A stretch of DNA of 64,000 nt. Origin: a virus. Its lineage: Duplodnaviria > Caudoviricetes. The stretch lies in IMG/VR virus record IMGVR_UViG_3300042291_001013; one strand, given 5' to 3'. A program made the translations under genes and the position numbers. Of this stretch, positions 16,733-60,271 are shown piece after piece (positions within the stretch are counted from its first letter, which is position 1; every line of letters starts with the position of its first letter). The notes below the pieces were generated by a model. The model saw only the letters and a program-made list of their open reading frames with translations, ran no database searches and had not been told where the DNA came from.

Positions 16733-18049
16733 ATGACCAGTCAGATCAACCCAAACAACATAGATGGCAGCTACCCAGTTGCTGGCCAGCCCAATAACAC
16801 ACAGGGCTTTAGAGACAATTTTACCAATATTAAACAGAATTTTCAATATGCAGAAACTGAAATTGATGATCTGCAAAACAAAGTTGTTCTAAAACAAGCC
16901 CTGGCCGGTGGTACTTTGAACAACAACATGAACGACAATCTCATGTATGCTGTAAAGTTCCAAGACGTTAGTTACACCTATGTGCAAAATGCCACTACTT
17001 CGGGCACTGTGCCCTTGGATTTTTCAGCTGGTCAATATCAATTTATTACCACAACAGGTCCTATCACTCTTTCCTTTGCTAACTGGCCAATTTCAGGATC
17101 AGCTGGACTTATTCAAATTGCTGTTAATATTACCAGTACTGCGCACACACTGACTTTGCCGTCAGCAGTGAGTCTAGGTACTGTGGGAGTACAAGGCTAC
17201 AGTAGTAATGTAATTACATTTGCTCAAACTGGTACCTATCAGTTTGCGTTTAGTTCTGTCAATGGCGGAACTACCATAACTGTGTACGATCTCAATAGAC
17301 CACTCAGCTACTACACCAACCCTGTGACCATTTCCAATACCGCAGACAGCACAGGAACATCGTCTGGTGCCCTGATTGTCAGTGGCGGCGTTGGTGTAGC
17401 CGGTAACTTGTACGTGGGCGGCAACATTGTGGGCAGTATTGTTGCAACCGGCAATACTTTTGCAGGCAACACCACTGTGGGCAATTTGCTCACAGCAGGA
17501 TTTGTCAGTGCCACAGGCAACATCACTGGCGGCAACATCAATACCGCGGGCTTGGTATCAGCTATTGGTAACATCACTGGCGGCAACTTAAATTCTGTTA
17601 GCCTAAGTCTAAGCGGTAACGTGATATCAGCTCTAAACGTAACTGGCAACATAACTGGTGGCAACATCATGAGTGTGGCCATTGTCAGTGCGGCTGGTAA
17701 CGTTACAGGTGGAAACTTGCGCACAGGCGGCTTGATCAGTGCAACTGGTACTGTTACCAGTGCATCAAATATCACTGGTGGCAACATCACCACAGCTGGT
17801 CAAGTCAGTGCCGCAGGTAATGCAATAATTCTTGCAGGCACAGCACCACCAGCTGGTGGCACTACTGGTGCTGGCTTGCGTATGTCCAGTACTAGCAATC
17901 TTGGTTTATTCTTTGGAGCCGGTACTCCCAGCCTTAGCGCCGCGCAAGGCAGTCTCTATATCAATACTACTGGAAGCAGTACATCAACTCGAATTTATAT
18001 TAACACCAACGGCTCTACTGGCTGGACGGCTGTGACTACTGCGACTTAA
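16733..18049 (+). CDS. Tail fibre or virion structural protein with GNITGGN repeats
   Basis: N-terminal DNFTNIKQNF..EIDDLQ coiled coil; about 17-aa GNITGGN repeats; ATAAATA and AAGGA upstream. Confidence 0.75.
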   Translation: MTSQINPNNIDGSYPVAGQPNNTQGFRDNFTNIKQNFQYAETEIDDLQNKVVLKQALAGGTLNNNMNDNLMYAVKFQDVSYTYVQNATTSGTVPLDFSAGQYQFITTTGPITLSFANWPISGSAGLIQIAVNITSTAHTLTLPSAVSLGTVGVQGYSSNVITFAQTGTYQFAFSSVNGGTTITVYDLNRPLSYYTNPVTISNTADSTGTSSGALIVSGGVGVAGNLYVGGNIVGSIVATGNTFAGNTTVGNLLTAGFVSATGNITGGNINTAGLVSAIGNITGGNLNSVSLSLSGNVISALNVTGNITGGNIMSVAIVSAAGNVTGGNLRTGGLISATGTVTSASNITGGNITTAGQVSAAGNAIILAGTAPPAGGTTGAGLRMSSTSNLGLFFGAGTPSLSAAQGSLYINTTGSSTSTRIYINTNGSTGWTAVTTAT

Positions 18050-19514
18050 TTTTACCCAGTAACTGTTTAAGTTTGGCGCTTTGTACGTCTGCTGTGATTT
18101 TTTCTGCAACCTCGGGTTTTAATTCTTTGCCACCTGGTTGATAATCCCAAGCGTGTGTTCCTGTTGGCTTTTCCCACTTGGTGGATGTACTGTCCGTTGT
18201 TTCGGTGTCAGCAGCCTTGACTTGACTCCGGGCCTTGATTGAATCCATAATGGAACTTTGTGGTCGATTGTATCCTGTTCCTTCGTCCCCGCCTTCATCA
18301 GTAATGCGCATAGTTTCAATGTTGTACTCCAGATCGATTTTTTGACCAACGCCGGTCGAGCTTCGCGACTTCATACACTGTATTTGGTATTTGCCACGTT
18401 CCTTCATTGCTCGGCTTGTGAAAATGCCGAACACGTTATCTGCTGTGTTGATCTTGGAAATACCACCTGAAATATGCGAGTGATCAAATTCAATTTCTTC
18501 CACAGCGGATCTGTTTAACTGCGATGCAGTTACCATTAGGATTCCTAGCTCTTTGGCTAAATTACGGAGTTCTTCTGAAACATACTTGTCTTTCACAAAC
18601 AAGTCGTTGGGACTGACTTTGGCACTTACAGGCATCAGCAAATCCAGGTAGTCAATCATCACAAAGTCTACCTTCTTGCCTGTTTGAATTTGATACTCTT
18701 TCAAATAAGCACGAATGTCATTGATGTTGCTTTGTGCTGGCAAGCCCTTGACTTGATAGTTGCCCGACTTCTTGGCCACCAACTTGACCTTGAGCTCTGT
18801 GGTGTCTATGTCCTTGCGAATGTCTTTTGTTGACATATTGGTCAACATAGCATCAGTTCGCAATGACGTAAGCTCTTCTGACAGTTCTAGTGTGATGTAG
18901 ACACCGCTGAGTCCTGATTGTAGCCAGTTCAAGGCAATGTTCATCATGACCAGTGACTTGCCTGATCCTGAGCCACCTGCAAAGATGTTGAGTTCACCAC
19001 GGCTGAATCCGCCATACAACAATCTGTCCAGTTGTGGCCAGCCTGTGCTTACTTGTCCGCCCGAGTTGAAGTATTTCTCAATGCGAGCCTTGGGATCAGC
19101 AAAGTAGTCTGTACCCATGTCTTTAGTAAGAGATATCTGTACTGCATCTTTGATGAGTTTTTCAACAGGTTCATATTCGCCTTTCTCCAGCAAGTCTGCT
19201 GATTTCAAAATAGCACGTTCCAGTTCTTGGCGTCGAGTAAATGCTTCAAACTCGCCCATGAACCAGTCAAAGTGACCTTCGTTCAAGTCCGGCACCGGTT
19301 GCAGTTTAACGCCTGTGGTTGCTGAAATCTGCATCCTATCAGGCATGGTCTTGTGCTTGTCTGAGTGTTCTTTAATGAACTCAGCCGCAGGTCTCAAACT
19401 CCGGTCAAAGTTTTGCGGGTTGTAGATGTTTTGAACACGCACATAACTTGTGGCATCTTCCAGCATCATCTCTAAAAATAATCGTTGGACATCAAGTCCG
19501 TAGTCTTTAATCAT
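18036..19514 (-). CDS. Replicative DNA helicase (T4 gp41/DnaB-like)
   Basis: AGGSGSGKS Walker A, IDYLDL, TASQLNR and MKSR motifs. Confidence 0.95.
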   Translation of the reverse strand: MIKDYGLDVQRLFLEMMLEDATSYVRVQNIYNPQNFDRSLRPAAEFIKEHSDKHKTMPDRMQISATTGVKLQPVPDLNEGHFDWFMGEFEAFTRRQELERAILKSADLLEKGEYEPVEKLIKDAVQISLTKDMGTDYFADPKARIEKYFNSGGQVSTGWPQLDRLLYGGFSRGELNIFAGGSGSGKSLVMMNIALNWLQSGLSGVYITLELSEELTSLRTDAMLTNMSTKDIRKDIDTTELKVKLVAKKSGNYQVKGLPAQSNINDIRAYLKEYQIQTGKKVDFVMIDYLDLLMPVSAKVSPNDLFVKDKYVSEELRNLAKELGILMVTASQLNRSAVEEIEFDHSHISGGISKINTADNVFGIFTSRAMKERGKYQIQCMKSRSSTGVGQKIDLEYNIETMRITDEGGDEGTGYNRPQSSIMDSIKARSQVKAADTETTDSTSTKWEKPTGTHAWDYQPGGKELKPEVAEKITADVQSAKLKQLLGKIKSQ

Positions 19515-19540: not shown

Positions 19541-19927
19541 TTAGAATTTTATTTTGTTGCCTAATTTTAACAAATAGGCAAAAGGATCCGGGTCAAACAA
19601 ATCAAACAACACACACCCATTGTAGTTCCAGGTAGTTGAACGTGTGGATGGGTAGTCAAGATATTCTTTTATGGAACCGGGTGTTTGGGTTGATACGATG
19701 GGTTTGTATTCAATCCTGGTTAGCACTATGTCTTGATTAATTTTTATGCCTGCCAACGAAACATTCAAAAGTTCTACAGATTTTTGGTCATGACTGTTTT
19801 TTCCTGATAGTACAAGCATTACTGTATTTGGCAAATAACTCAAAATTTCAACAGTTTCTATTCCATTGTTGATTTTTCGTGTAGTTGGCAACATCTCAAA
19901 ATCAGAACCATATGCATTTATAGTCAT
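19541..19927 (-). CDS. Hypothetical protein downstream of the B12 radical SAM gene
   Basis: AT-rich ORF; start uncertain (19927 or 19987). Confidence 0.55.
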   Translation of the reverse strand: MTINAYGSDFEMLPTTRKINNGIETVEILSYLPNTVMLVLSGKNSHDQKSVELLNVSLAGIKINQDIVLTRIEYKPIVSTQTPGSIKEYLDYPSTRSTTWNYNGCVLFDLFDPDPFAYLLKLGNKIKF

Positions 19928-19956
19928 TGCATTATCGCTGTGTTTGAGATTTAAAA

Positions 19957-21321
19957 TTAGAAGAAAGTTTGTACGTTGAATCCGCATTGTTGTATTACTT
20001 TAACAGTATCAATTGCATTGCGATACCTTGACATTTGATTTTGTCGGAAAGAACTATGATCAATTGTTTTTTCTAACTTTGTACCTGGCAATATACCCGG
20101 TAATGTGCATTGAACTTTTAGTACTGTGCCATTGGCAAAATCACTGTGATTTAAAAACCATTGTCTGACCTGCTGATAATCTGACTCTGTTTCTGTTGGA
20201 TATGACAGAATTATTAGCAGATTCATCGGTACCTGATATTTTTTAGCCATCTCCAAATGATGATCAAGATCTGCATTGGTAAAATTCTTACCTAGATTGA
20301 TTCGAACATGCTCAATGATGCTTTCAACGCCAGTTAGTAAAAATCCATTGCTTTTTTTTATTAATTTCCACATGTCTTCTTTGTGTTGTGTTGCAGATCT
20401 AATAATAAAAGATCCTACCCAATGTATCTGGGCCTGAGCGTTTGTTTGGTCATTGTAGGCAGCTATTAGTTGCAATAGTTTTTTAAACTCTTTTAAATTA
20501 CCATTGCAAATGCTACTAGCAAATTGAAATCTATACACCTTGTAAGTTTCTATATGTTTTTGTATTTGTTCAAAAATGTTTTCAGCAGTTAGATACTGAA
20601 ACTTTTCCCAGAATGCAATTACATCACAAAATTCACAGGCCTGCACACAACCACGGCTATCCACAATTGGCAATGTTGGATATCCATATCTAAACAACCT
20701 GTAGTCAGAGTAATCTGGGATAGGAAGTTTATTAAATTCTGTGTTGGATTGCCAAGCATGGGAGTTAATGCCAGGATAAGACATATTTCCACGCACATAT
20801 TCAACCAAGGACGTTTCGCCATCACCAGTGATATAGTCGTCAATAAATCCTAACTTTTTAACGCGGTCAGGAAATTTAAACAAAGAATTTTCCAATGTCT
20901 GCAATCCAGGTCCGCCAATTACTATTTTGGCGTCAGGCGCTTGCTGTCGTAACATTGCGCACAGCCAAACAGTAAAGGTCTGCGTTTGTGAGGAAAACAA
21001 ACTCAGTCCAATAATAGTAGGGGCATGCGACAATATTTCTCGAGCGTAAAAATCCAGCATTATAACTAAATCGTCCGCTATTTCTTCATGTATTTTTTGT
21101 CGATTAAAAAAATCAAGAAACAGGTTTCGTTTGGGATTGTGTTGTATTTTGTTGTATATTTCAATATTAAGATCGAGCGCCACGCATGCGATTCCGTTGG
21201 CTTGCAATGATGCTTTTAATACTGCTGGGGCTGCCAATGGAGTATCATCGTCAACAAAAGGCATCGACGCAACAACAACTTTAACAATATTCTGTTGATT
21301 AGTATTGTAGTCGCTTAACAA
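19957..21321 (-). CDS. B12-binding radical SAM protein (class B methylase-like)
   Basis: N-terminal cobalamin-binding-like domain (IIGLSLFS, KIVIGGPG, GDGE); SRGCVQACEFC CxxxCxxC motif; TGVES. Confidence 0.85.
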   Translation of the reverse strand: MLSDYNTNQQNIVKVVVASMPFVDDDTPLAAPAVLKASLQANGIACVALDLNIEIYNKIQHNPKRNLFLDFFNRQKIHEEIADDLVIMLDFYAREILSHAPTIIGLSLFSSQTQTFTVWLCAMLRQQAPDAKIVIGGPGLQTLENSLFKFPDRVKKLGFIDDYITGDGETSLVEYVRGNMSYPGINSHAWQSNTEFNKLPIPDYSDYRLFRYGYPTLPIVDSRGCVQACEFCDVIAFWEKFQYLTAENIFEQIQKHIETYKVYRFQFASSICNGNLKEFKKLLQLIAAYNDQTNAQAQIHWVGSFIIRSATQHKEDMWKLIKKSNGFLLTGVESIIEHVRINLGKNFTNADLDHHLEMAKKYQVPMNLLIILSYPTETESDYQQVRQWFLNHSDFANGTVLKVQCTLPGILPGTKLEKTIDHSSFRQNQMSRYRNAIDTVKVIQQCGFNVQTFF

Positions 21322-22288
21322 GTTGCTTTTTCCTTAGTTCTATTTTGATTCGACTGGTTTCTCTAGCTGACATTATAGTTAGCAATGCTCCGAGCCGCCC
21401 CAACACAATTACCGCATCATTAACATCTTTGCAACCTTCTGGCCATTCTGGTATACTTACCGCCCAGCCAAGTTCTACTGCACGATCTATTAGTTCAAGT
21501 CCTGCTTTGTCTTGATCAGGTATTACTGTGATTTGTTTTCCAAGACTTCTAATCAGTCTTGCTTGTGTATCACTAATGGTGTTGTGCATTACTGCTAAGC
21601 CAGATATGGATAACGCACAAAATACACCTTCCATGACAAACACATGTTCCCATTCAGTCTTTTGTAAATCCGTACCAAACACATATCCAGGTTGCATATG
21701 ATTAATATACTTGGGCACCTTGTTGTCTAAGAATCTAGCAGTCCAGCCAACTACAGTATTGTTCCAAGTAAACGGCACAACCACATGAGGCCTAATCCAA
21801 TGAATTCCGTCCGTTTTAATAGCAGTCATGATAGGATAATCTTTGGGTACCTGGCGAGTTTGCAAATAATCCCAGTAGTCTGTCATTTCAGGAGTTACAA
21901 CTTCTGAGTATGGTGGTAAGTCGTCAGACTCTTCAAATGTTATATCTGCTAATGCTTGAAATGTTTTATTACGGTCATCTAGAATACCGTGTATGCTACG
22001 ATGTTTAAGACTTTCTAAGTTTAAGTACTCAACTTCATTTTCAGAAACACCTAACCATCCTAGTAACTTTTTTGCTTTAAAACTTACTGAACGTCCAAGA
22101 ACGAAACTTGCTGTGTATGAACAATTAAAACAGTGATAGCTCCAGCCTTGTTCTGCAACTTTGATTCCGCCACGTTGACGTTTGTCTTGGGAGTTACCGT
22201 TATGCGTACAGCAAACCGCATTGAAACTCAGCCAGCCACTGGGACTGCTTTTTCTTTTTGCGGGTAGGTAACTTAGGATATCCAGCAT
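21299..22288 (-). CDS. DNA primase (T4 gp61-like)
   Basis: Zn ribbon (CCTH...HCFNC); TOPRIM motifs MEGVF, PDQDKAG and KDVND. Confidence 0.92.
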   Translation of the reverse strand: MLDILSYLPAKRKSSPSGWLSFNAVCCTHNGNSQDKRQRGGIKVAEQGWSYHCFNCSYTASFVLGRSVSFKAKKLLGWLGVSENEVEYLNLESLKHRSIHGILDDRNKTFQALADITFEESDDLPPYSEVVTPEMTDYWDYLQTRQVPKDYPIMTAIKTDGIHWIRPHVVVPFTWNNTVVGWTARFLDNKVPKYINHMQPGYVFGTDLQKTEWEHVFVMEGVFCALSISGLAVMHNTISDTQARLIRSLGKQITVIPDQDKAGLELIDRAVELGWAVSIPEWPEGCKDVNDAVIVLGRLGALLTIMSARETSRIKIELRKKQLVKRLQY

Positions 22289-22294
22289 CTATAC

Positions 22295-22323
22295 AGTATA
22301 ACAGATTAGTTACACTAAATCAA
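22295..22323 (-). promoter_or_regulatory. Sigma70 promoter TTGATT-17-TATACT, 6 nt before the primase ATG
   Basis: Exact 17-nt spacer; no SD, so leaderless geometry. Confidence 0.7.
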
Positions 22324-23390
22324 CGATACTGGACGTTTTCAACCTCGCCGTTGTCAAAAATTGCCACAGCAGAAACTGGGCTTTGGAATTGCATGGGCAC
22401 ATAACCTGAGCCACCATTCACAATGGTTACTCCGGCAATTTGATTGTTGAGACCAATTGTACAGGTGGCTTCAGCACCAGCACCGTCGCCTAGAATTCGA
22501 ATTCTAGGCGGCGCTGTGTACTGATATCCAGCATTGGTTATGGTTATACCAGTTACTACTCCATTGGCAACTACTACGTTTCCACTGGCACCATAACCAA
22601 TTGAGTTGTTTAGAGCCAGGCGCAGGATTGGGTGAAATCCAACTACATTGAAATAGTCTGTGGTAGTTTGTGACAGGTACTCACGAGATTCAGTTACATC
22701 ATACCAGGCAGACTCATAGTTTTGAGCGGCTTGCACCTTGGCTGTACCGGTGTAACCCACAAGGTCAAATTTCACAGTGGTAAAGCTAGACTCATTTGTG
22801 GGCATGAAACTGGAATAGAATTCAGTTTGATAAATTGCCACTTGTGGTTGCGGTGTGTTGGCCCAGTCCGGCCAGTTGGTAGATGATCCGCTTACAAACT
22901 GATTTTTGCCATACAGGTCTGGCACTGTGCAATCTGTACTGGGAATAAATTGCGGCAATATGCTGTCCACAATGTTTATGTCTGCTCGTGCTTCGGAGTT
23001 TGCATTGACATACACTGCCTGCACATAGTTTCCTGAAGTTCGTTGGATACTGTAGCTGGCTGGCTGTGATTCAATATTGACAGTTTCATTTGTTTCAAGC
23101 ACCACTTTTACTCGGCCTGTTGATGCACTAAGTACTTCCATGCTCTTGGTCAATAATAGTCGATCGCCAGCTTGGTTTACCAAGCGGAAAACAAAAGAAC
23201 TACCTGTAATGTTGACAGGTTTTTGGTCTTGGTTAATAAATTCAAATAACAAGACGTTGTCAACGCCTTTGTTGATGGTTAAAGTTTTAGCATACACTGG
23301 GTCATACCTCGCTGTGAAATATCCACCGCTGGTGTCTATCAAAAGTACACGGGCAATTTGCTGATATAAGTACGCAGTGGTTGAATACAT
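22320..23390 (-). CDS. Virion structural protein with BppU-like Ig domain
   Basis: GVDNVLLFEFINQDQKPVNITG motif; C-terminal GYQYTAPP..GDGAGA repeats; start set at 23390 (ATAAATA and AAGGA upstream). Confidence 0.65.
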   Translation of the reverse strand: MYSTTAYLYQQIARVLLIDTSGGYFTARYDPVYAKTLTINKGVDNVLLFEFINQDQKPVNITGSSFVFRLVNQAGDRLLLTKSMEVLSASTGRVKVVLETNETVNIESQPASYSIQRTSGNYVQAVYVNANSEARADINIVDSILPQFIPSTDCTVPDLYGKNQFVSGSSTNWPDWANTPQPQVAIYQTEFYSSFMPTNESSFTTVKFDLVGYTGTAKVQAAQNYESAWYDVTESREYLSQTTTDYFNVVGFHPILRLALNNSIGYGASGNVVVANGVVTGITITNAGYQYTAPPRIRILGDGAGAEATCTIGLNNQIAGVTIVNGGSGYVPMQFQSPVSAVAIFDNGEVENVQYR

Positions 23391-23411
23391 AGGAATCCTT
23401 GACAAGTATTT

Positions 23412-23789
23412 ATGGGTAACAATATTTTTGAAAAACTGACGGAAAAGTACCCGTTTATAACCTTGTGCGTGTACGCTAACGCAGAGTATGTGGGCGTTGT
23501 GCAGAATCGTGATGATACTGTGACAACAATCTACGACTTTGGCAGTGTGCAAACACAACAAGAAAAACTAGAATTTCTAGAGTTGGCCAGCGTTTGGTGG
23601 TGGGAAAGCAACAGATCTATCCCTATCAATATTTTTCTGCGCAAAGAGTGGGACAAGTTTCGCCCAACTCTGCGCACCTTTGTAAACAAGGATCTTGAAA
23701 TCTTGCACGGACCCACTTGCAGTTTGCTGGACATTGCTCGCAAGAAAAGCAAACGAAAGAGCATTACGCTAGTGCGGCGTCTTGAGTGA
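23412..23789 (+). CDS. Hypothetical protein
   Basis: 125 aa, divergent from the 23390 gene with only 21 bp between starts; WWWESNRSIPINIFL motif. Confidence 0.7.
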   Translation: MGNNIFEKLTEKYPFITLCVYANAEYVGVVQNRDDTVTTIYDFGSVQTQQEKLEFLELASVWWWESNRSIPINIFLRKEWDKFRPTLRTFVNKDLEILHGPTCSLLDIARKKSKRKSITLVRRLE

Positions 23790-24342
23790 GTAGATTCATA
23801 TGCAGGGCAACAAGGGCCGCGTAGGAAACTGCGTGGCTTTTTTTAAATGAGTAGCCTCTACTGTCGTCCCCGTTCCACACTTCAGCAAATACTTCTTCCC
23901 AAGAGCAAGTTTGCAAGTGTGCTTTGCCTGGACGTATGATTGAAATAAATGCGGCCATCCTGGGAATTGAGTCTGGCTTCATGACTCGCAGTAGGTCTGT
24001 ATAGTTTCCCACATGCACCAGCTGAGCGGCCCAGGCGTTGTCAGTCCACAGTCTTGACCATGATGGTTCTATGCCCAACATCTGTTCATAATGTTCGGGA
24101 CTTTTTACCAGTCCATAAACGCTCATGTTCAAGAAGTCTAGTTTAAAGTATCCACGCTGTTCCGCAGTTTCATAATCTAATGCCGCACAACCAATGATGG
24201 GATCTGTGGGTATTTCTGTTACATAAATGCCCGAGTTGTGTTTGCGCACACCAGTTGCAGATTCAAGCCGTGCAGGAACATGCTGAATCAATTTCAGCAA
24301 TGCGTCCCTGTTGGGCATGTCAATGTCAATGTCTGCGCTCAT
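23764..24342 (-). CDS. Miniature DNA polymerase III alpha (DnaE) palm-like protein
   Basis: ADIDID, RKHNSG, YFKLDFLN and YSFKKSHAVSY match DnaE motifs in order within 192 aa. Confidence 0.8.
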   Translation of the reverse strand: MSADIDIDMPNRDALLKLIQHVPARLESATGVRKHNSGIYVTEIPTDPIIGCAALDYETAEQRGYFKLDFLNMSVYGLVKSPEHYEQMLGIEPSWSRLWTDNAWAAQLVHVGNYTDLLRVMKPDSIPRMAAFISIIRPGKAHLQTCSWEEVFAEVWNGDDSRGYSFKKSHAVSYAALVALHMNLLTQDAALA

Positions 24343-25046
24343 AGTCTTACTATACCAGTATTGGGCACGTGGTTTCGATTGTAGGTTCCATTGCGTATTT
24401 TAACATCTTCCTGTTCAATCTGCAACCTTGTGTCTGCGCTGACAGGGTATTGTGGTAAAACTCTTTCCACATAGTTCAAATGCTCAATTGGTGTGTGGTG
24501 CATGTCATACTCAATCACGATTTGATCGTGTATGACTTCTTTGAAACTGGGCTTGACAGTGTCTAGCACATTTTGGTACAGTTTGAGAATATCATAGTTT
24601 GGATTGTAATCTTTGTCTTGATACTGATCGGATTGATGCATGGGCACCATGCTTAAAAAGTGCCAGGTCACACCAGTGTGCTCTAGTAGAGTTTTTACTG
24701 CGGATATAAATGCAAAATCACGTACCATGCAACCACGTTCGTCAATCCAACGTTTGACCCAGTCTCGAGGATAGGTACCTTGTGTGTATACATTGCCCGG
24801 TGTGACCCAGTTCCGGTCCACATATCTATCTTCACGTGCTGTGTTGGTCCAACACACAATCACAGTGTCGCCAGGTTTGAATTGGTTGCGCTGATTGCAC
24901 TCATACACAGAGTTTAATATGTAATGGTTGCCGGCCCCTACTCTACCCCAGTTGTGAAATTCCTGTGCTTGGTAGCTCAAGATATCAGCCCAAGTACTCC
25001 ACACATAGCTGGTATAGCTACACCCAAATGTAAACAATCTATTCAT
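24339..25046 (-). CDS. SGNH-like protein (2 of 6)
   Basis: TFGCSYT, GRVGAGN and DMHHTP motifs. Confidence 0.7.
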   Translation of the reverse strand: MNRLFTFGCSYTSYVWSTWADILSYQAQEFHNWGRVGAGNHYILNSVYECNQRNQFKPGDTVIVCWTNTAREDRYVDRNWVTPGNVYTQGTYPRDWVKRWIDERGCMVRDFAFISAVKTLLEHTGVTWHFLSMVPMHQSDQYQDKDYNPNYDILKLYQNVLDTVKPSFKEVIHDQIVIEYDMHHTPIEHLNYVERVLPQYPVSADTRLQIEQEDVKIRNGTYNRNHVPNTGIVRL

Positions 25047-25762
25047 AGCAATCTTTCTAGCTCAGGCCAAAGCCATTCACGCACCAAGACTTCACTGGCT
25101 TCAGTACCATAGTGTCCGTCGTGCGTGTATGGCAACTTTCGCTTTTCGCCTTCGTCACGACCCACGCCATTGGCCAATTTGAGACTGTTTCTAAACCATT
25201 CATAGCCCGGAAGGAACAATGTGTCCCAGTCCACAAACCAACTGAAAAATATCAGCTTCTTGTTGTGTGCATCACACAAGGCCTTCATGGCCAACATGTT
25301 GTGCAAGGTCTGATACTGCCAGAACCGTGCGCCAGCTGACTGGTCAAGCCAAAAACGATCAAACTGCTCAAGGTCATAGTCAACCATCTTGCCCAGCCAG
25401 TACTTGTTCTCATGTACATTGAGTGTGTAACACCCCATGTCTTTGTAGATGTTGTTGTGTGTGGAGTCTTGATAGTGCTGGGGTGCAGGTATGGGATGTG
25501 GCCGTAGATTCTGTTGCACTTCTTCCCAGGCTCGCATGCCGATCACCACACGACTGGGTTCAGTCAGTTGTACAATCACAAGATCCACCTCGGGATCTTT
25601 TACAATGTCATGTAACTTCTCAACATAGAAAGCATTGCCAGCACCTGAACTGCAAGCTCTAACCAGCTCACTGCTTAGTTTGGCACTGACATGATCAGGC
25701 CAACTCTGGCCATAGTCTGCTGTGCTAAAGCTGTCACCAAGGGCGGCTAATTTACGATACAT
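25043..25762 (-). CDS. SGNH-like protein (3 of 6)
   Basis: ALGDSFS, SSGAGN and DGHYG motifs; start set at 25762. Confidence 0.7.
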   Translation of the reverse strand: MYRKLAALGDSFSTADYGQSWPDHVSAKLSSELVRACSSGAGNAFYVEKLHDIVKDPEVDLVIVQLTEPSRVVIGMRAWEEVQQNLRPHPIPAPQHYQDSTHNNIYKDMGCYTLNVHENKYWLGKMVDYDLEQFDRFWLDQSAGARFWQYQTLHNMLAMKALCDAHNKKLIFFSWFVDWDTLFLPGYEWFRNSLKLANGVGRDEGEKRKLPYTHDGHYGTEASEVLVREWLWPELERLL

Positions 25763-26099
25763 CACACAGGGCCACAGCAATCTTAACAGCATCTTCTGCA
25801 CGATCTCTAGCCAATAATGCATCTGCCACAGTAGGATGTTTTTTTGCCAACTCCAACATTTGTTTTTCTTGTTCCATTTTGCGACGAACCCACTGAACCG
25901 CTTCTTGTGCTACGCCGTCCAGTTCAATCTGTGGAATACTCGAACTGAACTGCACCCAGTCAGTCCCATTGTATACTTCAAAATTTGATCCATTGTACCG
26001 GACCATGCCTGCACTGTGTCGACTCATGTCAACATAAGGTGTGCTGTAATTGTTGGCCGCAATATAGATGCCCGGCCCCGGTGTAATATTTTTAATCAT
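25752..26099 (-). CDS. Hypothetical protein
   Basis: 115-aa ORF in the operon. Confidence 0.65.
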   Translation of the reverse strand: MIKNITPGPGIYIAANNYSTPYVDMSRHSAGMVRYNGSNFEVYNGTDWVQFSSSIPQIELDGVAQEAVQWVRRKMEQEKQMLELAKKHPTVADALLARDRAEDAVKIAVALCDVS

Positions 26100-26100
26100 G

Positions 26101-26772
26101 TCACCATCCTGCCTTTGTTAAGATATCCCGTGCATACTCTTGGTCTGCTGGATAGTTGTTAAATTTCTTTTGCCACTCGTCACTGTCAATGTAGGACCAT
26201 ATCATACCAATTTGATCTGATGCAAGACCGGCTAGAAACTGTTGTCCTGATTCACAGTTGTAGATAATCCAAGGACTGATACGACCAGTTGTGACAGCAT
26301 AGCACATGGCCACACTACTGCCATAACGCAAACAGTCCTGTGGTTGAGCAGAGTTTTTGTCTGCCCAGTCCATGCCAAACTCCACTGCTCTTGCTAGAGC
26401 ATCTGAAACGTTTTCCACACGCAAATACCCAATCAAGTATTCAGTGTAGAGCTGGTCGCTGGACCAATTGTCAATTTTCTTTTGTTGTTTTAGCAACCAC
26501 AGCAGATAACGCTCAGGTGCAATTACTTTTGTGTTTACACAGTAACGACCAAACTTTACAAATGCTCGATAGTATGCTGAGTCCGCAAAATCATCAAAGG
26601 TTTTTAACTTGGCTGATCCCTGTGCTTGTTCATAAAACTTAATGTAAGCTCTGTACCCCAACTGTACACCACGTTCGTCTTGTTCGAATCTCCTGCGCTT
26701 GGGCTCACACATGTGAACAGCTATGCTAGTTTCTCTAGCAAACTGTTTTTTACAGTACTGGCATTGGATCAT
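26101..26772 (-). CDS. Zn-finger-containing hypothetical protein (possible remote gp59-like helicase loader)
   Basis: CQYC-x12-HMC at the N-terminus; the gp59 resemblance is by eye only. Confidence 0.55.
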   Translation of the reverse strand: MIQCQYCKKQFARETSIAVHMCEPKRRRFEQDERGVQLGYRAYIKFYEQAQGSAKLKTFDDFADSAYYRAFVKFGRYCVNTKVIAPERYLLWLLKQQKKIDNWSSDQLYTEYLIGYLRVENVSDALARAVEFGMDWADKNSAQPQDCLRYGSSVAMCYAVTTGRISPWIIYNCESGQQFLAGLASDQIGMIWSYIDSDEWQKKFNNYPADQEYARDILTKAGW

Positions 26773-27476
26773 TGTAGTATTTTATGCTCTTGTATGTAAT
26801 TTGTCAAGAACTCATTGAGTTTTGCATGATGACCTATTGCCGGATGTGTCATATCTGGAGGAACATGCGGTGCACCTGGTGGATACTTTTTAGGCTCCAC
26901 ACCTTGTGCGGCTTGCCAGGCTGTTGCTCGCCACTGATATCCATCAACAATTTCTGGGCAACAAAACAAACTCAATCTAGAATCTTCAAGATATTCCTGA
27001 TACAAATCATCGGCCTGCTGAAACATCAACACTCGATGCCCTCTAGATTTCAAACTGTCAATTGTGCTGAGCATACGGTACATGAGATCTTCAGTACGAT
27101 CCAAAATGCTGTATACTTCAGTTTTGAGTTTGGTTTCCACAAACTGTTCAGACTCTTTTTGGTTCCAGCCTGTTTGCCATCTGTAAGCAAACTCTTGGTT
27201 TTGCGGATTTACCCATCGTCCTTCAAAATCATTTTCAGATTCACAGATGGGTATTTCTAGTCTGCTGAGAAAGGTCATACCCAACACATACAAGGTCGGT
27301 GGTGCTGTGTAACTGTGTTTAAGAGTGGTACGAAGTATTCTGCTGTTGGCGCTGCCACTAACAGCAATACTGTGGGCGTTAGCTATACCTAGACGCTGTG
27401 CTAGATCTTGATGGCCGTTGCCCAATGCGTAGGAATGTGTGTAACTGCATCCGTTTACAACCAATTGTTGTATCAT
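26769..27476 (-). CDS. SGNH-like protein (4 of 6)
   Basis: VNGCSYT, VSGSAN and THPAIGHH motifs. Confidence 0.7.
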   Translation of the reverse strand: MIQQLVVNGCSYTHSYALGNGHQDLAQRLGIANAHSIAVSGSANSRILRTTLKHSYTAPPTLYVLGMTFLSRLEIPICESENDFEGRWVNPQNQEFAYRWQTGWNQKESEQFVETKLKTEVYSILDRTEDLMYRMLSTIDSLKSRGHRVLMFQQADDLYQEYLEDSRLSLFCCPEIVDGYQWRATAWQAAQGVEPKKYPPGAPHVPPDMTHPAIGHHAKLNEFLTNYIQEHKILQ

Positions 27477-27916
27477 TTTTCTTTGCCGGCAGCTTTGTGA
27501 TAAGCGTCAATTTCTTTCTGTGTGGTTATTGCAGCCAACACATCTATTTCATCATCCTTGTAGGTGGGATAAATGGCTATCAAGGCTTTGCGTTTTGCAC
27601 TTAGGCCTGCTTCTTTTTTCTTGGGAGCAATCCACAGATGTCGCGGGGTTCCCAAGCCTGGACTCACTGCTGTAGCACACAGCCATTGCAGTTTGGGATG
27701 ACGACCAATATCAAAGAAGTGTTTGTTGAGATAGTGGTTGCAACTTTGCACATAATATTCTTGTAGTTCTTGAGCGCCTTCCACAGCCGAGCTCCAACGC
27801 AACATCAAGAACAGGCTAAACTTCTTGCGCTCTTCTTCAGTGAGCTCGTTGTAGAAGTTTTTATTTTTGCGATCCAGCTGTCGCATTTCATTGGCAATGT
27901 TTAGTTTATCACTCAT
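27473..27916 (-). CDS. Probable clamp-loader small subunit (gp62-like)
   Basis: 147 aa; KFSLFLMLRWSS...CN...QWL...RHLWIAPKKK pattern resembles gp62. Confidence 0.55.
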   Translation of the reverse strand: MSDKLNIANEMRQLDRKNKNFYNELTEEERKKFSLFLMLRWSSAVEGAQELQEYYVQSCNHYLNKHFFDIGRHPKLQWLCATAVSPGLGTPRHLWIAPKKKEAGLSAKRKALIAIYPTYKDDEIDVLAAITTQKEIDAYHKAAGKEK

Positions 27917-45569: not shown

Positions 45570-46022
45570 TTAAACTTGAATATCTTCCATACCTGCTGTG
45601 CGCAAACGAACTACATGTCCCATTTGCCACTGCTTGGAATCCAGGCCTTTCATGATGCCCAACCATCGGTTACGCAACAAGGCCACTTCGTTGATGATAG
45701 TTTCAAAGTCAATCACTTCGTCTTCACCATCAACATATTTTTCAGCATCCCTACTGGTCAGCGCACGAGCATAGGCTTCCAGATACTTTTGAAAATGCTT
45801 GCGTCGAATCTTGCGCAGTTGGATGTTGAGATAGTTTAACACAGCTTCAATTTCTTGCAGTTGGTTAAATCTATGTTCAGTAATGCCCGGCAAGGTTGTG
45901 ATGTTTTTCTCCACCAGGCCCCCAATACGACAATCCTTCTTGGCAGACTCAAGCTCGTGTTCATAGTGAGCAATAAAGTCTGGTATTGCATCAAGGCCGG
46001 CAGTTATACGACTATACCACAT
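45570..46022 (-). CDS. uvsY: UvsY-like recombination mediator
   Basis: 150-aa coiled-coil protein (KYLEAY, YVDGE..V) located downstream of uvsX. Confidence 0.7.
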   Translation of the reverse strand: MWYSRITAGLDAIPDFIAHYEHELESAKKDCRIGGLVEKNITTLPGITEHRFNQLQEIEAVLNYLNIQLRKIRRKHFQKYLEAYARALTSRDAEKYVDGEDEVIDFETIINEVALLRNRWLGIMKGLDSKQWQMGHVVRLRTAGMEDIQV

Positions 46023-47259
46023 ATTTTTTATACTTTACTAACCAAGGGAATAGCACAGTCCAGTCGGTGCCACGGCGACGATCTTTTTCTTCTAAAAATA
46101 CAAAAAGATCACGGATATCTGTTGGGCTGTGAGTTGGCTGGCATATTTGTTGAAATATGCCTTTCATGTATTCATACGCTAGAGAATCCTCATCTGTGTC
46201 TGTGGGCAATAGACTTAAAATAGTATCCATATCTTTTTCAAATTCATCTCCGGGCAATATACCTGACTTTAAATAATTTGGTCCCGGTTCTACTCCTGAA
46301 AACCAATGTCCTATTTTACGCTCTTTGCGCCATTCTATTAATTTTGTTAAAAGTTCTGGCATAGTCTTAATTGTTAATACTGAAATAGTTTGATTGATCA
46401 TAAGATATAACCATTTATACTGCATCAGATAACGAAAATTTTCCTCCCATCTTTTAAGATCGATTCCGTATCTCACATATTCTTGTTGAGGTCCCCAACA
46501 ATCAATACTGACACTAATGTCAATTCTGGCAATCTTTCGATCTACTAATAGTTTACGAAATTTAGGTATAAATGATGCCAATCGTTCTGGAGATACCATA
46601 AGATTGGTTACGATATTTAATTGGCAGTCAGGATTGGGATATTTGTCAACCATTTCTAAGAAATAATCAAATTCCTGTTGTATCAATGGTTCGCCACCTA
46701 AAATTCCCAATCGTTTAAGTTTAGGAAATCCATCAGGAAACCATTCCCAAAATAAAGGAACATAGTCTTTGTATTTGTTTTTAATAATAGGAAGGTGTAC
46801 TCCTCCTTGTTTGAATTCTTTAAATTTGTTGTTTTCTGCTGTGTTGGTACTACTAAGACCATTGGGACAATATAAACATCCCATGTTACAAGCACTACTA
46901 AAATATACTTCTAGTAGAGTAGGGCTAACGTTAACGGCCTGAAGATTATGTTCTAATTCTGGCGGTGACATATCAGGTATGCTTAAATGGCGCATGCGAT
47001 CGCTTGTGCCCCCTACTTCTTCAATTTTACGACAATAAGCACAACTATCTTCTGGCCATAGTCCCTGCAACATTTGTTGCCGATCCTGTATTTTTAATGG
47101 AGTATTATGAAATTGCATAAAGTCTTCTGGAGCAACTGTGCCAATGGCTGTTCGATGACAGCTTCCTGTTACACCATTATTAAGATATAATGTACTCCAT
47201 GCCCATTTAAGTTGGCAAGCGGTATTTGTTTTTATTGGAAAATATTTTTTGTCAGGCAT
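46012..47259 (-). CDS. Radical SAM protein with N-terminal twitch/SPASM-like domain
   Basis: ACQLKW..GSCHR; CNMGCLYC; GGEPL; VRYG. Confidence 0.88.
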   Translation of the reverse strand: MPDKKYFPIKTNTACQLKWAWSTLYLNNGVTGSCHRTAIGTVAPEDFMQFHNTPLKIQDRQQMLQGLWPEDSCAYCRKIEEVGGTSDRMRHLSIPDMSPPELEHNLQAVNVSPTLLEVYFSSACNMGCLYCPNGLSSTNTAENNKFKEFKQGGVHLPIIKNKYKDYVPLFWEWFPDGFPKLKRLGILGGEPLIQQEFDYFLEMVDKYPNPDCQLNIVTNLMVSPERLASFIPKFRKLLVDRKIARIDISVSIDCWGPQQEYVRYGIDLKRWEENFRYLMQYKWLYLMINQTISVLTIKTMPELLTKLIEWRKERKIGHWFSGVEPGPNYLKSGILPGDEFEKDMDTILSLLPTDTDEDSLAYEYMKGIFQQICQPTHSPTDIRDLFVFLEEKDRRRGTDWTVLFPWLVKYKKYVV

Positions 47260-58403: not shown

Positions 58404-59124
58404 CCATTACTCTTTCTGCAAATATTTTGTGTCCTTCAGGACCAGCATGCATGTAGTCACGGGCATAGCCAATCTCTTCTCTACTGCGAGCAAAATAATC
58501 ATGTGCATTGTATGTTTGGCATTTGATGTCAAGCTCTGCACACAGTCCTTGCACTGCCAACTTGTTCTTTGCATTATTTAAGTCGGCATTGCGATCATTT
58601 ATCAACCACTGCTGTATGGCTCGGTCTGTGATATCAGTCTGGCCAGGCATATACGTGTTGTGCGGCCACTGAGAATCTTCAGTGATTAGATCAAACCTAT
58701 GTTTGGGTGGGGCACACATTACAACTAACCTGGGCAACAGCCGGGGAACCCAATATTTTGCCAACATAAAACAAGTGTCAGCACTGGCACCTCCCCACGA
58801 AAGATTATACACTGTGAGCTCTAACTCTTGTCCTACTAGTGTGGGCCATATGCTTTCTAAAGGTAATCCCATGCCAACACTGTAACTGCATCCTAAAGTA
58901 ACTATGCTGGCCGCACTGGGATCAAACTCTTCAGCTCTAAAACCATTTGAATTGATTTTGTATGTTATTGCTCGGGGCCTGTCCCATCCATGCCGGCGGA
59001 AATGCTCTTGGTGTTTTGGGTCTTGTAATAATTTCTGATAGTTTTCTTCGGTGTCAGTTGACAACCACTCAGTAGTCTGCCCCGCATACTTCATGCCAAA
59101 GTGCCAAGGTGCGTTATTTGACAT
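58378..59124 (-). CDS. SGNH-like protein (6 of 6)
   Basis: TLGCSYS, WGGASA and DYMHAGPEGH motifs. Confidence 0.72.
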   Translation of the reverse strand: MSNNAPWHFGMKYAGQTTEWLSTDTEENYQKLLQDPKHQEHFRRHGWDRPRAITYKINSNGFRAEEFDPSAASIVTLGCSYSVGMGLPLESIWPTLVGQELELTVYNLSWGGASADTCFMLAKYWVPRLLPRLVVMCAPPKHRFDLITEDSQWPHNTYMPGQTDITDRAIQQWLINDRNADLNNAKNKLAVQGLCAELDIKCQTYNAHDYFARSREEIGYARDYMHAGPEGHKIFAERVMDDWRKKHT

Positions 59125-60271
59125 CCGGTACCTCTTTTAATGCCACTGCCATGTCCGGCCATAAGTCTTCAAAGCGAGTTACTTTCTTTAGTTTTTGCTC
59201 AATGTCTCTGTGCCAATCAGTTACATACAAATCTCTATCCATTGGGGGCAAGTAACTGTTATCGTTCAAGGTTAACTTGTATCTTTCCAAGATATCAAGC
59301 GATATGTTTTGTTGTCCTTGATACTTGGTTAGAACAAGATCAATTTCATCTATAGCTTGTTGTCGAACATCCATGGGCATGCGTCTAATGTCCAGCTCTT
59401 GCGGATGGTTTAACTCGCACCAAAAAATATCCAAGCTCATAGACTGACAAAAATCATAGTACTCTGTCAAGTCCCAAGCACAATAAATGCTGTAAGCAGG
59501 ATGTGCTGTGACTCGTTGGTTGTCACGCTTCATTGTTTGAATGTTCTTAACAAATTGATTCCAGTCAGCACCATTGCGCACATACTCAAATTTTTGTTGA
59601 TTGGCGTTGTCAAAGCTGATCATCCAGCTGACTCGGGGCCATGTCTTTAGTTCTTGATAGATGGGATTGTTTTCAAGTTCCACGCTGAGGTTGGTTGTGA
59701 CCAGTACATTGACTTTGTTGGAATCAAGGTGTTTTAAAAACTCCCCAAGTCCTTTTTGTAACAAGGGTTCGCCACCGCCCAAAGTCAGCCCTTGTAAACT
59801 GTGTCCGTTGGTCTTGGCCAGTTCAATTAAGTCTTGATGTTCGTTGCGATCATGGTTGATAGGGATTTTCAGAGCACTTTGCCAAGCTGTGCTGGTTTCA
59901 GGATTGCAATAGGTGCAACTGAGATTGCAGAGATTGCTCCAGTTTACCACTAGGTGTTCTAGATCAAACCAGGATATATCATCATTGATTGCATCTATAG
60001 TCTTTTGATCTGCATGGCGCTGAGTGCGTCCACTGTGCCCAGTTGTATCTTCAAGACGTTTACACCATGAGCAAGCATCGTGCCATTTGCCGTCAGCCAT
60101 GTGTTGTTTTATGTCTTTGAGTTCGGGTCCGTGTATTACTTCTTGAATGGTGTTTTTCTTGATATTGCCCACAGATGACAAACAATGCATGCAAGGAGTA
60201 ACACGACCATTTTGGTCAATGTTGAGGCTGGTCCAGGGTGCAGGACAAAATGTAGGGCCGTTAGATATCAT
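59114..60271 (-). CDS. Radical SAM protein with N-terminal twitch/SPASM-like domain
   Basis: FCPAPW..PCMH; CNLSCTYC; GGGEPL; VRNG. Confidence 0.9.
   Translation of the reverse strand: MISNGPTFCPAPWTSLNIDQNGRVTPCMHCLSSVGNIKKNTIQEVIHGPELKDIKQHMADGKWHDACSWCKRLEDTTGHSGRTQRHADQKTIDAINDDISWFDLEHLVVNWSNLCNLSCTYCNPETSTAWQSALKIPINHDRNEHQDLIELAKTNGHSLQGLTLGGGEPLLQKGLGEFLKHLDSNKVNVLVTTNLSVELENNPIYQELKTWPRVSWMISFDNANQQKFEYVRNGADWNQFVKNIQTMKRDNQRVTAHPAYSIYCAWDLTEYYDFCQSMSLDIFWCELNHPQELDIRRMPMDVRQQAIDEIDLVLTKYQGQQNISLDILERYKLTLNDNSYLPPMDRDLYVTDWHRDIEQKLKKVTRFEDLWPDMAVALKEVPDVK

Follow-up and report, generated by a model that had tools for sequence, protein, structure and literature searches.

An environmental jumbo phage gene for the probable C-terminal subunit of a two-subunit minimal C-family nucleotidyltransferase

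Introduction

In cyanobacteria (Synechocystis, Nostoc), the alpha subunit of DNA polymerase III (Pol III) is encoded as DnaE-n and DnaE-c by two distant genes with split-intein pieces, and the products are spliced to a full-length alpha. A split minimal Pol III alpha was described computationally in group 2.2 jumbo phages by Iyer, Anantharaman, Krishnan, Burroughs and Aravind (2021, Viruses 13:63, PMC7824862), where it occurs beside a family B polymerase. Other phages encode C-family polymerases that are host-like and full length, contain the PHP domain and serve as the sole replicative polymerase (PMC7824862). Here, we describe a gene in a 64,000-nucleotide stretch of phage DNA (IMG/VR record IMGVR_UViG_3300042291_001013; the window, below) whose 192-residue product we call the C-unit. 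We assign it, with a probability of about 0.9, to a minimal C-family nucleotidyltransferase of group 2.2 jumbo phages, of whose two subunits it would be the C-terminal one; the proposed partner is called the N-unit.

The architecture itself was published in 2021 and is catalogued in PHROGs, and the window gene is an environmental member of it from an uncultured freshwater lineage. What is new here are the selection figures, the residue mapping, the models of both halves, their co-occurrence, a natural fusion of the two, and the conserved neighbours.

Results

Motifs and missing segments of the C-unit

The C-unit is encoded on the minus strand by an open reading frame (ORF) that begins MSADIDIDMPN, whereas the plus-strand frame of the same interval is riddled with stops. 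Residue numbers of E. coli alpha given throughout are those of the MG1655 (K-12) dnaE gene, taken from its RefSeq record and translated, which reads P400-D401-F-D403-V-D405. The features of the gene are as follows.

23764..24342, minus strand: predicted gene for the C-terminal piece of split minimal Pol III alpha (P0001), from the ORF translation, the match to phrog_11778, the AlphaFold2 model and VIA-align
24339..24342, minus strand: ATGA overlap of the upstream-gene stop with the C-unit start (translational coupling); the sequence reads ...CTATGAGC...
24319..24333, minus strand: DIDID, residues 4-8, first metal-binding strand, with D4/D6/D8 equivalent to E. coli D401/D403/D405, from conservation and the dnaE translation
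24229..24243, minus strand: KHNSG, residues 34-38, equivalent to E. coli K510-H511-AGG, from the BLASTP alignment and the conservation of H35 and G38
24130..24144, minus strand: KLDFL, residues 67-71, strand of the third catalytic carboxylate, with K67/D69 equivalent to E. coli K553/D555, from the hidden Markov model (HMM) alignment to 2hnh 539-641
23923..23940, minus strand: IIRPGK, residues 135-140, fingers remnant equivalent to E. coli LFRPG 637-641 (R639-P640-G641), from alignments and conservation
23821..23847, minus strand: FKKSHAVSY, residues 166-174, fingers remnant equivalent to E. coli FNKSHSAAY 756-764 (F756, K758, H760), from alignments and phrog_405 positions 773-809

The motifs DIDID, KHNSG, KLDFL, IIRPG and FKKSH follow one another as in DnaE. 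An initial annotation of the window, made from the letters alone, had pointed to this order, and the alignment with the E. coli dnaE product confirmed it. In BLASTP, residues 13-139 of the C-unit aligned with residues 488-641 of E. coli DnaE (E 5e-4), and residues 163-175 aligned with 753-765. The three catalytic carboxylates of the two adjacent palm strands are all present in the C-unit, as D4, D6 and D69 (D401, D403 and D555 in E. coli), so that the description of the protein as a reduced C-family palm with a full set of carboxylates holds.

The segments between the motifs are much shorter than in the bacterial enzyme. Only 25 residues separate D8 from K34, in comparison with 104 between D405 and K510 in E. 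coli, which indicates that the thumb region has been deleted, as had been noticed at the outset; the 25-residue stretch before KHNSG stands where E. coli has the thumb-bearing segment. Similarly, the gap between G139 and G163 comprises 23 residues in comparison with 111 in E. coli, which points to the deletion of about 88 residues of the fingers. Altogether, the C-unit is devoid of the counterparts of E. coli residues 406-487 and 642-752, and contains nothing past 784. The PHP, thumb, beta-clamp-binding/HhH and OB domains are all absent from its 192 residues. At the N-terminal side, it starts at the equivalent of E. coli residue 398, approximately, and the GRGS region (E. coli 360-365) falls to another gene. 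Hence, the C-unit does not hold in one polypeptide a complete Pol-beta-like palm that includes the GS NTP-binding motif.

The gene was initially regarded as intact and coupled to its neighbours at both ends. It is indeed intact, and its 5' end shares the ATGA overlap with the upstream gene, but its 3' end is not coupled and runs 26 nucleotides into a convergent gene of the plus strand (23412-23789).

The C-unit matches C-family polymerases in sequence and fold

In PHROGs, the C-unit matched phrog_11778, annotated as DNA polymerase (E 6.5e-53), with residues 3-188 aligned with profile positions 7-194 of 197. It also matched the DnaE-like phrog_405 (E 1.4e-7). When used as a single sequence, the C-unit found no match in the PDB, and Pol III alpha was reached by the family profile only. 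The profile was built from an alignment of 80 diverse homologs, 28-59% identical to the window protein (alignment A1), and retrieved from the PDB only chains of Pol III alpha: that of E. coli (2hnh, E 3.6e-6, residues 539-641 and 739-769), and also those of Taq and M. tuberculosis.

The AlphaFold2 model of the C-unit, based on alignment A1, had a predicted local distance difference test (pLDDT) score of 96.3 and a predicted template modelling (pTM) score of 0.88. In a Foldseek search with this model, the top 18 hits were C-family polymerases throughout, although their E-values were weak (0.002 and above) and their TM-scores low, which is explained by the large insertions that the target chains carry. 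VIA-align gave the following superpositions of the model.

PolC, 3f2b, chain range 970-1299: Z 9.9, 188 residues aligned, root mean square deviation (rmsd) 3.6
Taq, 3e0d, chain range 460-841: Z 9.8, 189 residues aligned, rmsd 4.1
M. tuberculosis, 5lew, chain range 418-811: Z 9.4, 188 residues aligned, rmsd 4.4
E. coli, 2hnh, chain range 399-784: Z 8.1, 187 residues aligned, rmsd 4.5

Overall, 185-189 of the 192 residues could be aligned with C-family chains, while the best unrelated chain had a Z of 3.0. Prediction of the structure and its superposition on the Pol III palm had been suggested as a check of the initial annotation, and it agreed with it: a confident model matched the C family only (Z 8.1-9.9). 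The matches indicate that the C-unit as a whole is a compressed copy of alpha residues 399-784. As the model covers no other part of E. coli alpha, the reported lack of PHP, clamp-binding and OB domains is borne out too.

The N-unit carries the missing part of the palm

The confident folding of the C-unit alone (pLDDT 96.3) could be taken as a sign that it is a self-sufficient palm with no partner, and the initial annotation had called it stand-alone. However, the strand and helix of the GS motif (E. coli 323-392) lie outside its ORF. In the phages Phosso and PAC2, phrog_405 also matched another small ORF, over a part of the profile that immediately precedes the part matched by the C-unit. These partner ORFs comprise 169-177 residues and end ...GVGRGSSVASYVL...EFL[NK]-stop. 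A corresponding N-unit of 172 residues, P0152, is encoded by a relative of the window phage represented by the 209-kilobase (kb) contig G001. It matched phrog_11127 (E 2.7e-40), carries GVGRGSS, of which GRGSS is kept among the conserved residues of the N-unit, and ends ...EFLR-stop.

The N-unit profile retrieved from the PDB only Pol III alpha, at E. coli residues 323-392, and BLASTP found the same similarity with an E of 4e-4. In the AlphaFold2 model of the N-unit (pLDDT 84), residues 73-172 matched PolC, residues 306-413 of M. tuberculosis DnaE1 and residues 279-393 of E. coli alpha, with Z of 6.1-10.2 overall and 8.3-10.2 for the E. coli segment, in comparison with 3.0 for the best unrelated chain. 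Thus, the break between the two polypeptides lies within the palm, after E. coli residue 393 and before 398: the N-unit ends at the equivalent of 392/393, and the C-unit starts at about 398. A separately encoded remainder that would make the protein an ordinary split DnaE had been named as a finding that would speak against the initial annotation. A separate piece does exist, but it adds only the palm segment 279-393, and what results is not an ordinary split DnaE. No pieces of the PHP, thumb, beta-binding or OB domains were seen, and the N-unit match begins at the equivalent of E. coli 279.

In place of PHP, the first 72 residues of P0152 (L091, positions 1129-1344) form a phage-specific alpha/beta domain. 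They had no match in the PDB (best Z 2.4), which does not imply a novel fold. In the predicted complex described below, this N-terminal domain contacts the beta-hairpin of the C-unit formed by residues 41-49.

A search for DnaE pieces and for a family B polymerase had also been recommended. With the N-units of Phosso and PAC2 as queries, tblastn detected nothing below E 0.4 in the 64-kb window, and the N-unit and the family B polymerase were both found in relatives. On contig G001, the C-unit gene is at 24.7 kb, that of the N-unit at 123.1 kb, and that of an 892-residue family B polymerase at 170 kb; on contig G003, C-unit and N-unit are 85 kb apart. If the orientation of G001 is transferred to the window genome, the N-unit gene is expected about 98 kb downstream of the C-unit gene, i.e., before the start of the window. 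A 519-nucleotide stretch of the same genome, 72,582 nucleotides before the window and about 96 kb from the C-unit, has 8 of 35 short words in common with P0152 and is a candidate for the N-unit gene, at a distance like that in G001.

The two halves co-occur, can be fused and are predicted to bind each other

Searching phage records with tblastn, we found the C-unit in 96 of them, all of jumbo phages of the Rak2/PA5oct/Atu_ph07/XacN1/Phosso group (35-42% identity). The N-unit was present in 95 records, which cover the same range of hosts. Some of the records label the C-unit homolog as "DnaE-like DNA polymerase III alpha". Five long contigs were chosen by the presence of the N-unit, and each of them had a single C-unit, at a distance of 45-116 kb; for three of these contigs, completeness was 97% or higher. 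Contig G002 (251 kb, 72% complete) has a C-unit without an N-unit, but this says nothing about the absence of the N-unit, as its expected site is beyond the contig end.

Moreover, the two halves occur as one chain in nature. Three proteins of 375-376 residues (P0055, P0272 and P0273), 78-81% identical to one another and representing three clusters from different sources, have the layout ...GVGRGSS...KEFIK, then a short linker, and then ADFDIDT... The fused forms come from ENA and Logan assemblies, where they are on short contigs.

We predicted the structure of a complex of the G001 N-unit and the window C-unit, each with its own alignment, in three runs and with three controls. The interface score ipSAE was 0.90 in the three runs, while the best of the three controls reached 0.28. 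Of 80 solved complexes, 58 attained this ipSAE mark, as did 2 of 110 mismatched pairs. The runs had at least 97% of contacts in common, with a partner pLDDT of 91 or higher. In the predicted interface, residues 137-138 of the N-unit, in the strand ahead of GRGSS, pair with residues 7-8 of the C-unit, in the DxD strand, as in a contiguous palm. This success of the prediction may, however, simply reflect the likeness of the pair to the solved structures of contiguous Pol III alpha.

As the GS-bearing partner co-occurs with the C-unit at about 1:1, is fused to it in one lineage and is predicted to complete its sheet, we consider a palm working on its own very improbable. In the relatives, the half with the GS motif is supplied by a separate and distant 172-residue gene, and the term "stand-alone" has to be given up. 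Of the roles initially proposed, that of a split-polymerase subunit is the one favoured by the finding of a co-occurring and, in one lineage, fused partner.

Conservation and selection argue for a working active site

A scan of IMG/VR revealed 80 loci with C-unit homologs of 69-93% identity. All 80 are intact, start with the same ATG and encode 184-196 residues. The median ratio of nonsynonymous to synonymous substitution rates (dN/dS), calculated by the Nei-Gojobori method from 198 unsaturated pairs, was 0.107, and in the comparison of the C-unit with its closest homolog dN was 0.034 and dS 0.41. The C-unit is under purifying selection. In alignment A1, residues D4, D6, K67, D69, R137 and P138 are invariant, and D8, H35, G38, K140, K167 and H170 are conserved in at least 90% of sequences. 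An exhaustive HMMER search yielded 362 representative C-unit clusters (50% identity) at E of at most 1e-3, of which 222 were at or below 1e-10. For the N-unit, there were at least about 8,000 proteins among 8,000 scored candidates. Most members of both families are from uncultured lake jumbo phages. No near-identical DNA was found when it was sought in cultured phages, and the C-unit protein is at most 42% identical to its best cultured-phage counterpart.

The intact homologs, the low dN/dS and the invariant catalytic residues together rule out a decaying fragment and indicate a working active site. The two tests proposed in the initial annotation, that of dN/dS across homologs and that of aspartate conservation, thus both came out as it had anticipated, with purifying selection and with D4, D6 and D69 unchanged in 80 diverse sequences, and its view that the ORF is not in decay is upheld. 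Nothing except the small size of the protein speaks for a captured dnaE fragment that is decaying, or for an intein-split DnaE joined by protein splicing, and we regard either as scarcely credible in view of the 80 of 80 homologs intact from the same start, the dN/dS of 0.11 and the 362 representative clusters. The pseudogene reading was rejected on the intactness of all homologs and their dN/dS. Splicing by an intein was rejected as well: one half ends at E. coli 392/393 and the other starts at about 398, there are no extra residues, and there is no Cys/Ser/Thr with an intein block.

The pattern of invariant residues also bears on the proposal that the C-unit is a non-catalytic decoy or inhibitor, which would mimic host Pol III alpha and disturb the host replisome. 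The C-unit is related to a host replisome protein and small enough to look like a fragment of it, and the phage would have a polymerase of its own; both would suit such a role. However, the parts of alpha that bind epsilon, beta and tau (PHP and the internal and C-terminal motifs) are absent, and the residues kept without change are the metal ligands D4, D6 and D69 and the GRGSS of the partner, as in a working active site and not as in a binding mimic. A decoy function seems to us highly unlikely.

Both halves are encoded among replication genes

The gene order around the C-unit is phrog_11758, the C2H2 gene (phrog_11058), variable inserts, the C-unit gene, the convergent phrog_11637, a virion-type protein gene and primase. 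Of those among the 80 IMG/VR loci whose flanks are long enough, nearly all share this order, as do Phosso and PAC2. In the window, the genes are as follows.

18036..19514, minus strand: DnaB-like replicative helicase (phrog_19, E 6.1e-70; DnaB_C, E 1e-21)
19541-19987 and 19957-21321, minus strand: 148-residue ORF and B12-binding radical SAM protein, between primase and DnaB
21299..22288, minus strand: DNA primase (Toprim; phrog_47, E 2.2e-30; Pfam Toprim_2), downstream in the conserved string
22320-23561, minus strand: mechanically called ORF of 413 residues, whose real start is probably later, the gene called on the identical JGI contig having 356 residues
23412..23789, plus strand: convergent gene of 125 residues (phrog_11637, E 2.4e-32), in the same position in nearly all loci with downstream sequence and in Phosso and PAC2
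24339-25046, 25043-25822 and 26769-27476, minus strand: ORFs of 235-259 residues with SGNH/GDSL-like N-terminal motifs (FGCSYT, LGDSFS, NGCSYT)
26101..26772, minus strand: C2H2 zinc-finger protein of 223 residues (phrog_11058, E 1.1e-54), by synteny; annotated as a C2H2 protein in PAC2
27473..27916, minus strand: protein of 147 residues (phrog_11758), member of the conserved string by synteny

The C2H2 gene is always upstream of the C-unit gene, and directly adjoins it in many relatives. Families phrog_11058 and phrog_11637 are virus-only. In nearly every relative with sufficient flank, from lake phages to PA5oct-like phages and Phosso, their genes lie on either side of the C-unit gene, and their proteins are candidates for working together with the minimal polymerase.

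In PAC2 and Phosso, the N-unit gene is in a string with a small gene (phrog_14844), a gene for a GroES-like co-chaperonin and a clamp-loader gene (phrog_168, E 2.4e-81). The string goes on with a gene of about 120 residues and a phosphatase gene, and MazG is encoded upstream (L189, PAC2 172846-175344; L190, Phosso 97210-101691). Both halves are thus placed among replication genes, the C-unit near primase and DnaB and the N-unit near the clamp loader. The window also encodes the large subunit of ribonucleotide reductase, a helicase and the large terminase, and its gene set fits a T4-like jumbo phage. The family B polymerase was found in the relatives G001, Phosso and PAC2.

The three SGNH/GDSL-like ORFs had no PHROG or Pfam match. 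Across the 80 loci, such inserts are present, absent or moved, and in L077, L086 and L087 the one designated unkD follows the C-unit gene. They behave as mobile or swappable inserts within an otherwise fixed gene string. The C-terminus of the protein encoded at 22320-23561 resembles repeats of baseplate-wedge or virion structural proteins, which is odd between polymerase and primase, but its position is conserved. The radical SAM protein encoded at 19957-21321 matched Pfam Radical_SAM (7.7e-10) and B12-binding (1.5e-6) and had no PHROG match; the region of this gene and of the 148-residue ORF has a GC content of 0.38, the lowest of its neighbourhood. More radical SAM genes are at 46012-47259 and 59114-60271.

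Discussion

The proposed working of the two-subunit enzyme follows from the division of the palm. The N-unit would supply the GS loop for binding of the triphosphate. Two Mg ions would be bound by the three carboxylates of the C-unit, which would also contribute K67 and the fingers remnants. With about 290 conserved residues, the heterodimer would thus rebuild a single Pol-beta-like active site, could polymerise nucleotides on a template, and would act as a second polymerase beside the phage family B polymerase in a T4-type replisome. Its possible roles include primer extension, synthesis of one strand and repair. We think it probable that the heterodimer is a catalytically active enzyme of the polymerase type.

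Several points weigh against this reading. In Pfam, no family was found with the C-unit at E up to 1, and the gathering thresholds of PF07733 (DNA_pol3_alpha) and PF17657 (DNA_pol3_finger) were not reached; within one related cluster of the Atlas, just 12% of the proteins carry PF17657. The N-unit used in the complex prediction is that of a relative whose C-unit is 76% identical to that of the window, and not that of the window genome. Since the pair is devoid of a thumb, of beta-binding/HhH and OB domains and of the counterpart of E. coli 642-752, templated, processive synthesis is not assured. Segment 642-752 contains arginines that contact the triphosphate. With PHP and a proofreading partner lacking as well, processive synthesis by the pair alone is unlikely. 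A role in short patches, or help from other phage proteins in gripping DNA, would accommodate this, and the C2H2 protein is a candidate helper. A full family B polymerase, as encoded by the relatives, would make the C-unit enzyme dispensable for bulk replication. Finally, we found no experimental study or activity assay of the split minimal Pol III in the literature, and the PA5oct omics paper contains nothing specific on the C-unit or N-unit genes.

The same losses could mean that the heterodimer is active, but not as a templated DNA polymerase. It might then tail DNA or RNA ends without a template, synthesise or handle primers together with the primase, or make or modify nucleotides; in a variant of this proposal, the C2H2 protein of phrog_11058 supplies the missing grip on nucleic acid. 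The Pol-beta superfamily includes many nucleotidyltransferases that are not polymerases, which counts for such an activity, as do the loss of the thumb, HhH/beta-binding and OB domains and of about 88 residues of the fingers, and the full family B polymerase of the relatives. On the other hand, the RPG and KSH remnants of the fingers are invariant or close to it, with no obvious need for them where neither a template nor a dNTP has to be positioned, and both halves are in strings of replication genes, the C-unit with primase and DnaB and the N-unit with the clamp loader. Taking both sides together, we consider the non-templated activity unlikely, and the variant with the C2H2 protein unlikely to the same degree, and we favour the two-subunit enzyme of polymerase type.

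If the pair is active, it would be the smallest known C-family polymerase, with about 290 residues of conserved core, and a natural test of what catalysis requires from Pol III alpha. It would also be a model for an early bacterial replicase, as argued by Iyer et al., and a compact enzyme for engineering. The rare fused form offers a ready single-chain construct for testing.

Compared with known systems, the window gene is closest to that of Iyer et al. (2021). As there, a C-unit of about 190 residues contains the Mg- and template-binding parts, and no other Pol III domains are present; in the relatives of the window phage, an N-unit of about 170 residues with the NTP-binding part is encoded at a distance. 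The identity of the C-unit to PA5oct, Phosso, Atu_ph07, GAP32 and other phages is 35-42%. As a difference from that system, the window locus has variable SGNH-like genes between the C2H2 gene and the C-unit gene. Additionally, the fused single-chain form found here is unmentioned in Iyer et al. 2021 (PMC7824862). The host-like, full-length C-family polymerases of other phages differ from the present enzyme, which is minimal and split and is accompanied, in the relatives, by a family B polymerase.

Contrary to the split DnaE of cyanobacteria, there is no intein, the split site is different, with the stop of one half and the start of the other separated by five residues of DnaE numbering, and a non-covalent minimal enzyme would result. 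The difference from bacterial alpha is one of size and composition: 192 and 172 residues in two polypeptides in comparison with 1160 in E. coli, and no tau-binding tail. Despite that, the catalytic core is of the same kind as in bacterial Pol III alpha (E. coli 2HNH, Taq 2HPI/3E0D, M. tuberculosis 5LEW) and PolC (3F2B), with a Pol-beta-like palm and the triad D401/D403/D555. Common to the C-unit and to bacterial alpha and PolC are also K553, the KHxxG strand, and the RPG and FxKSH motifs of the fingers, all in the same order.

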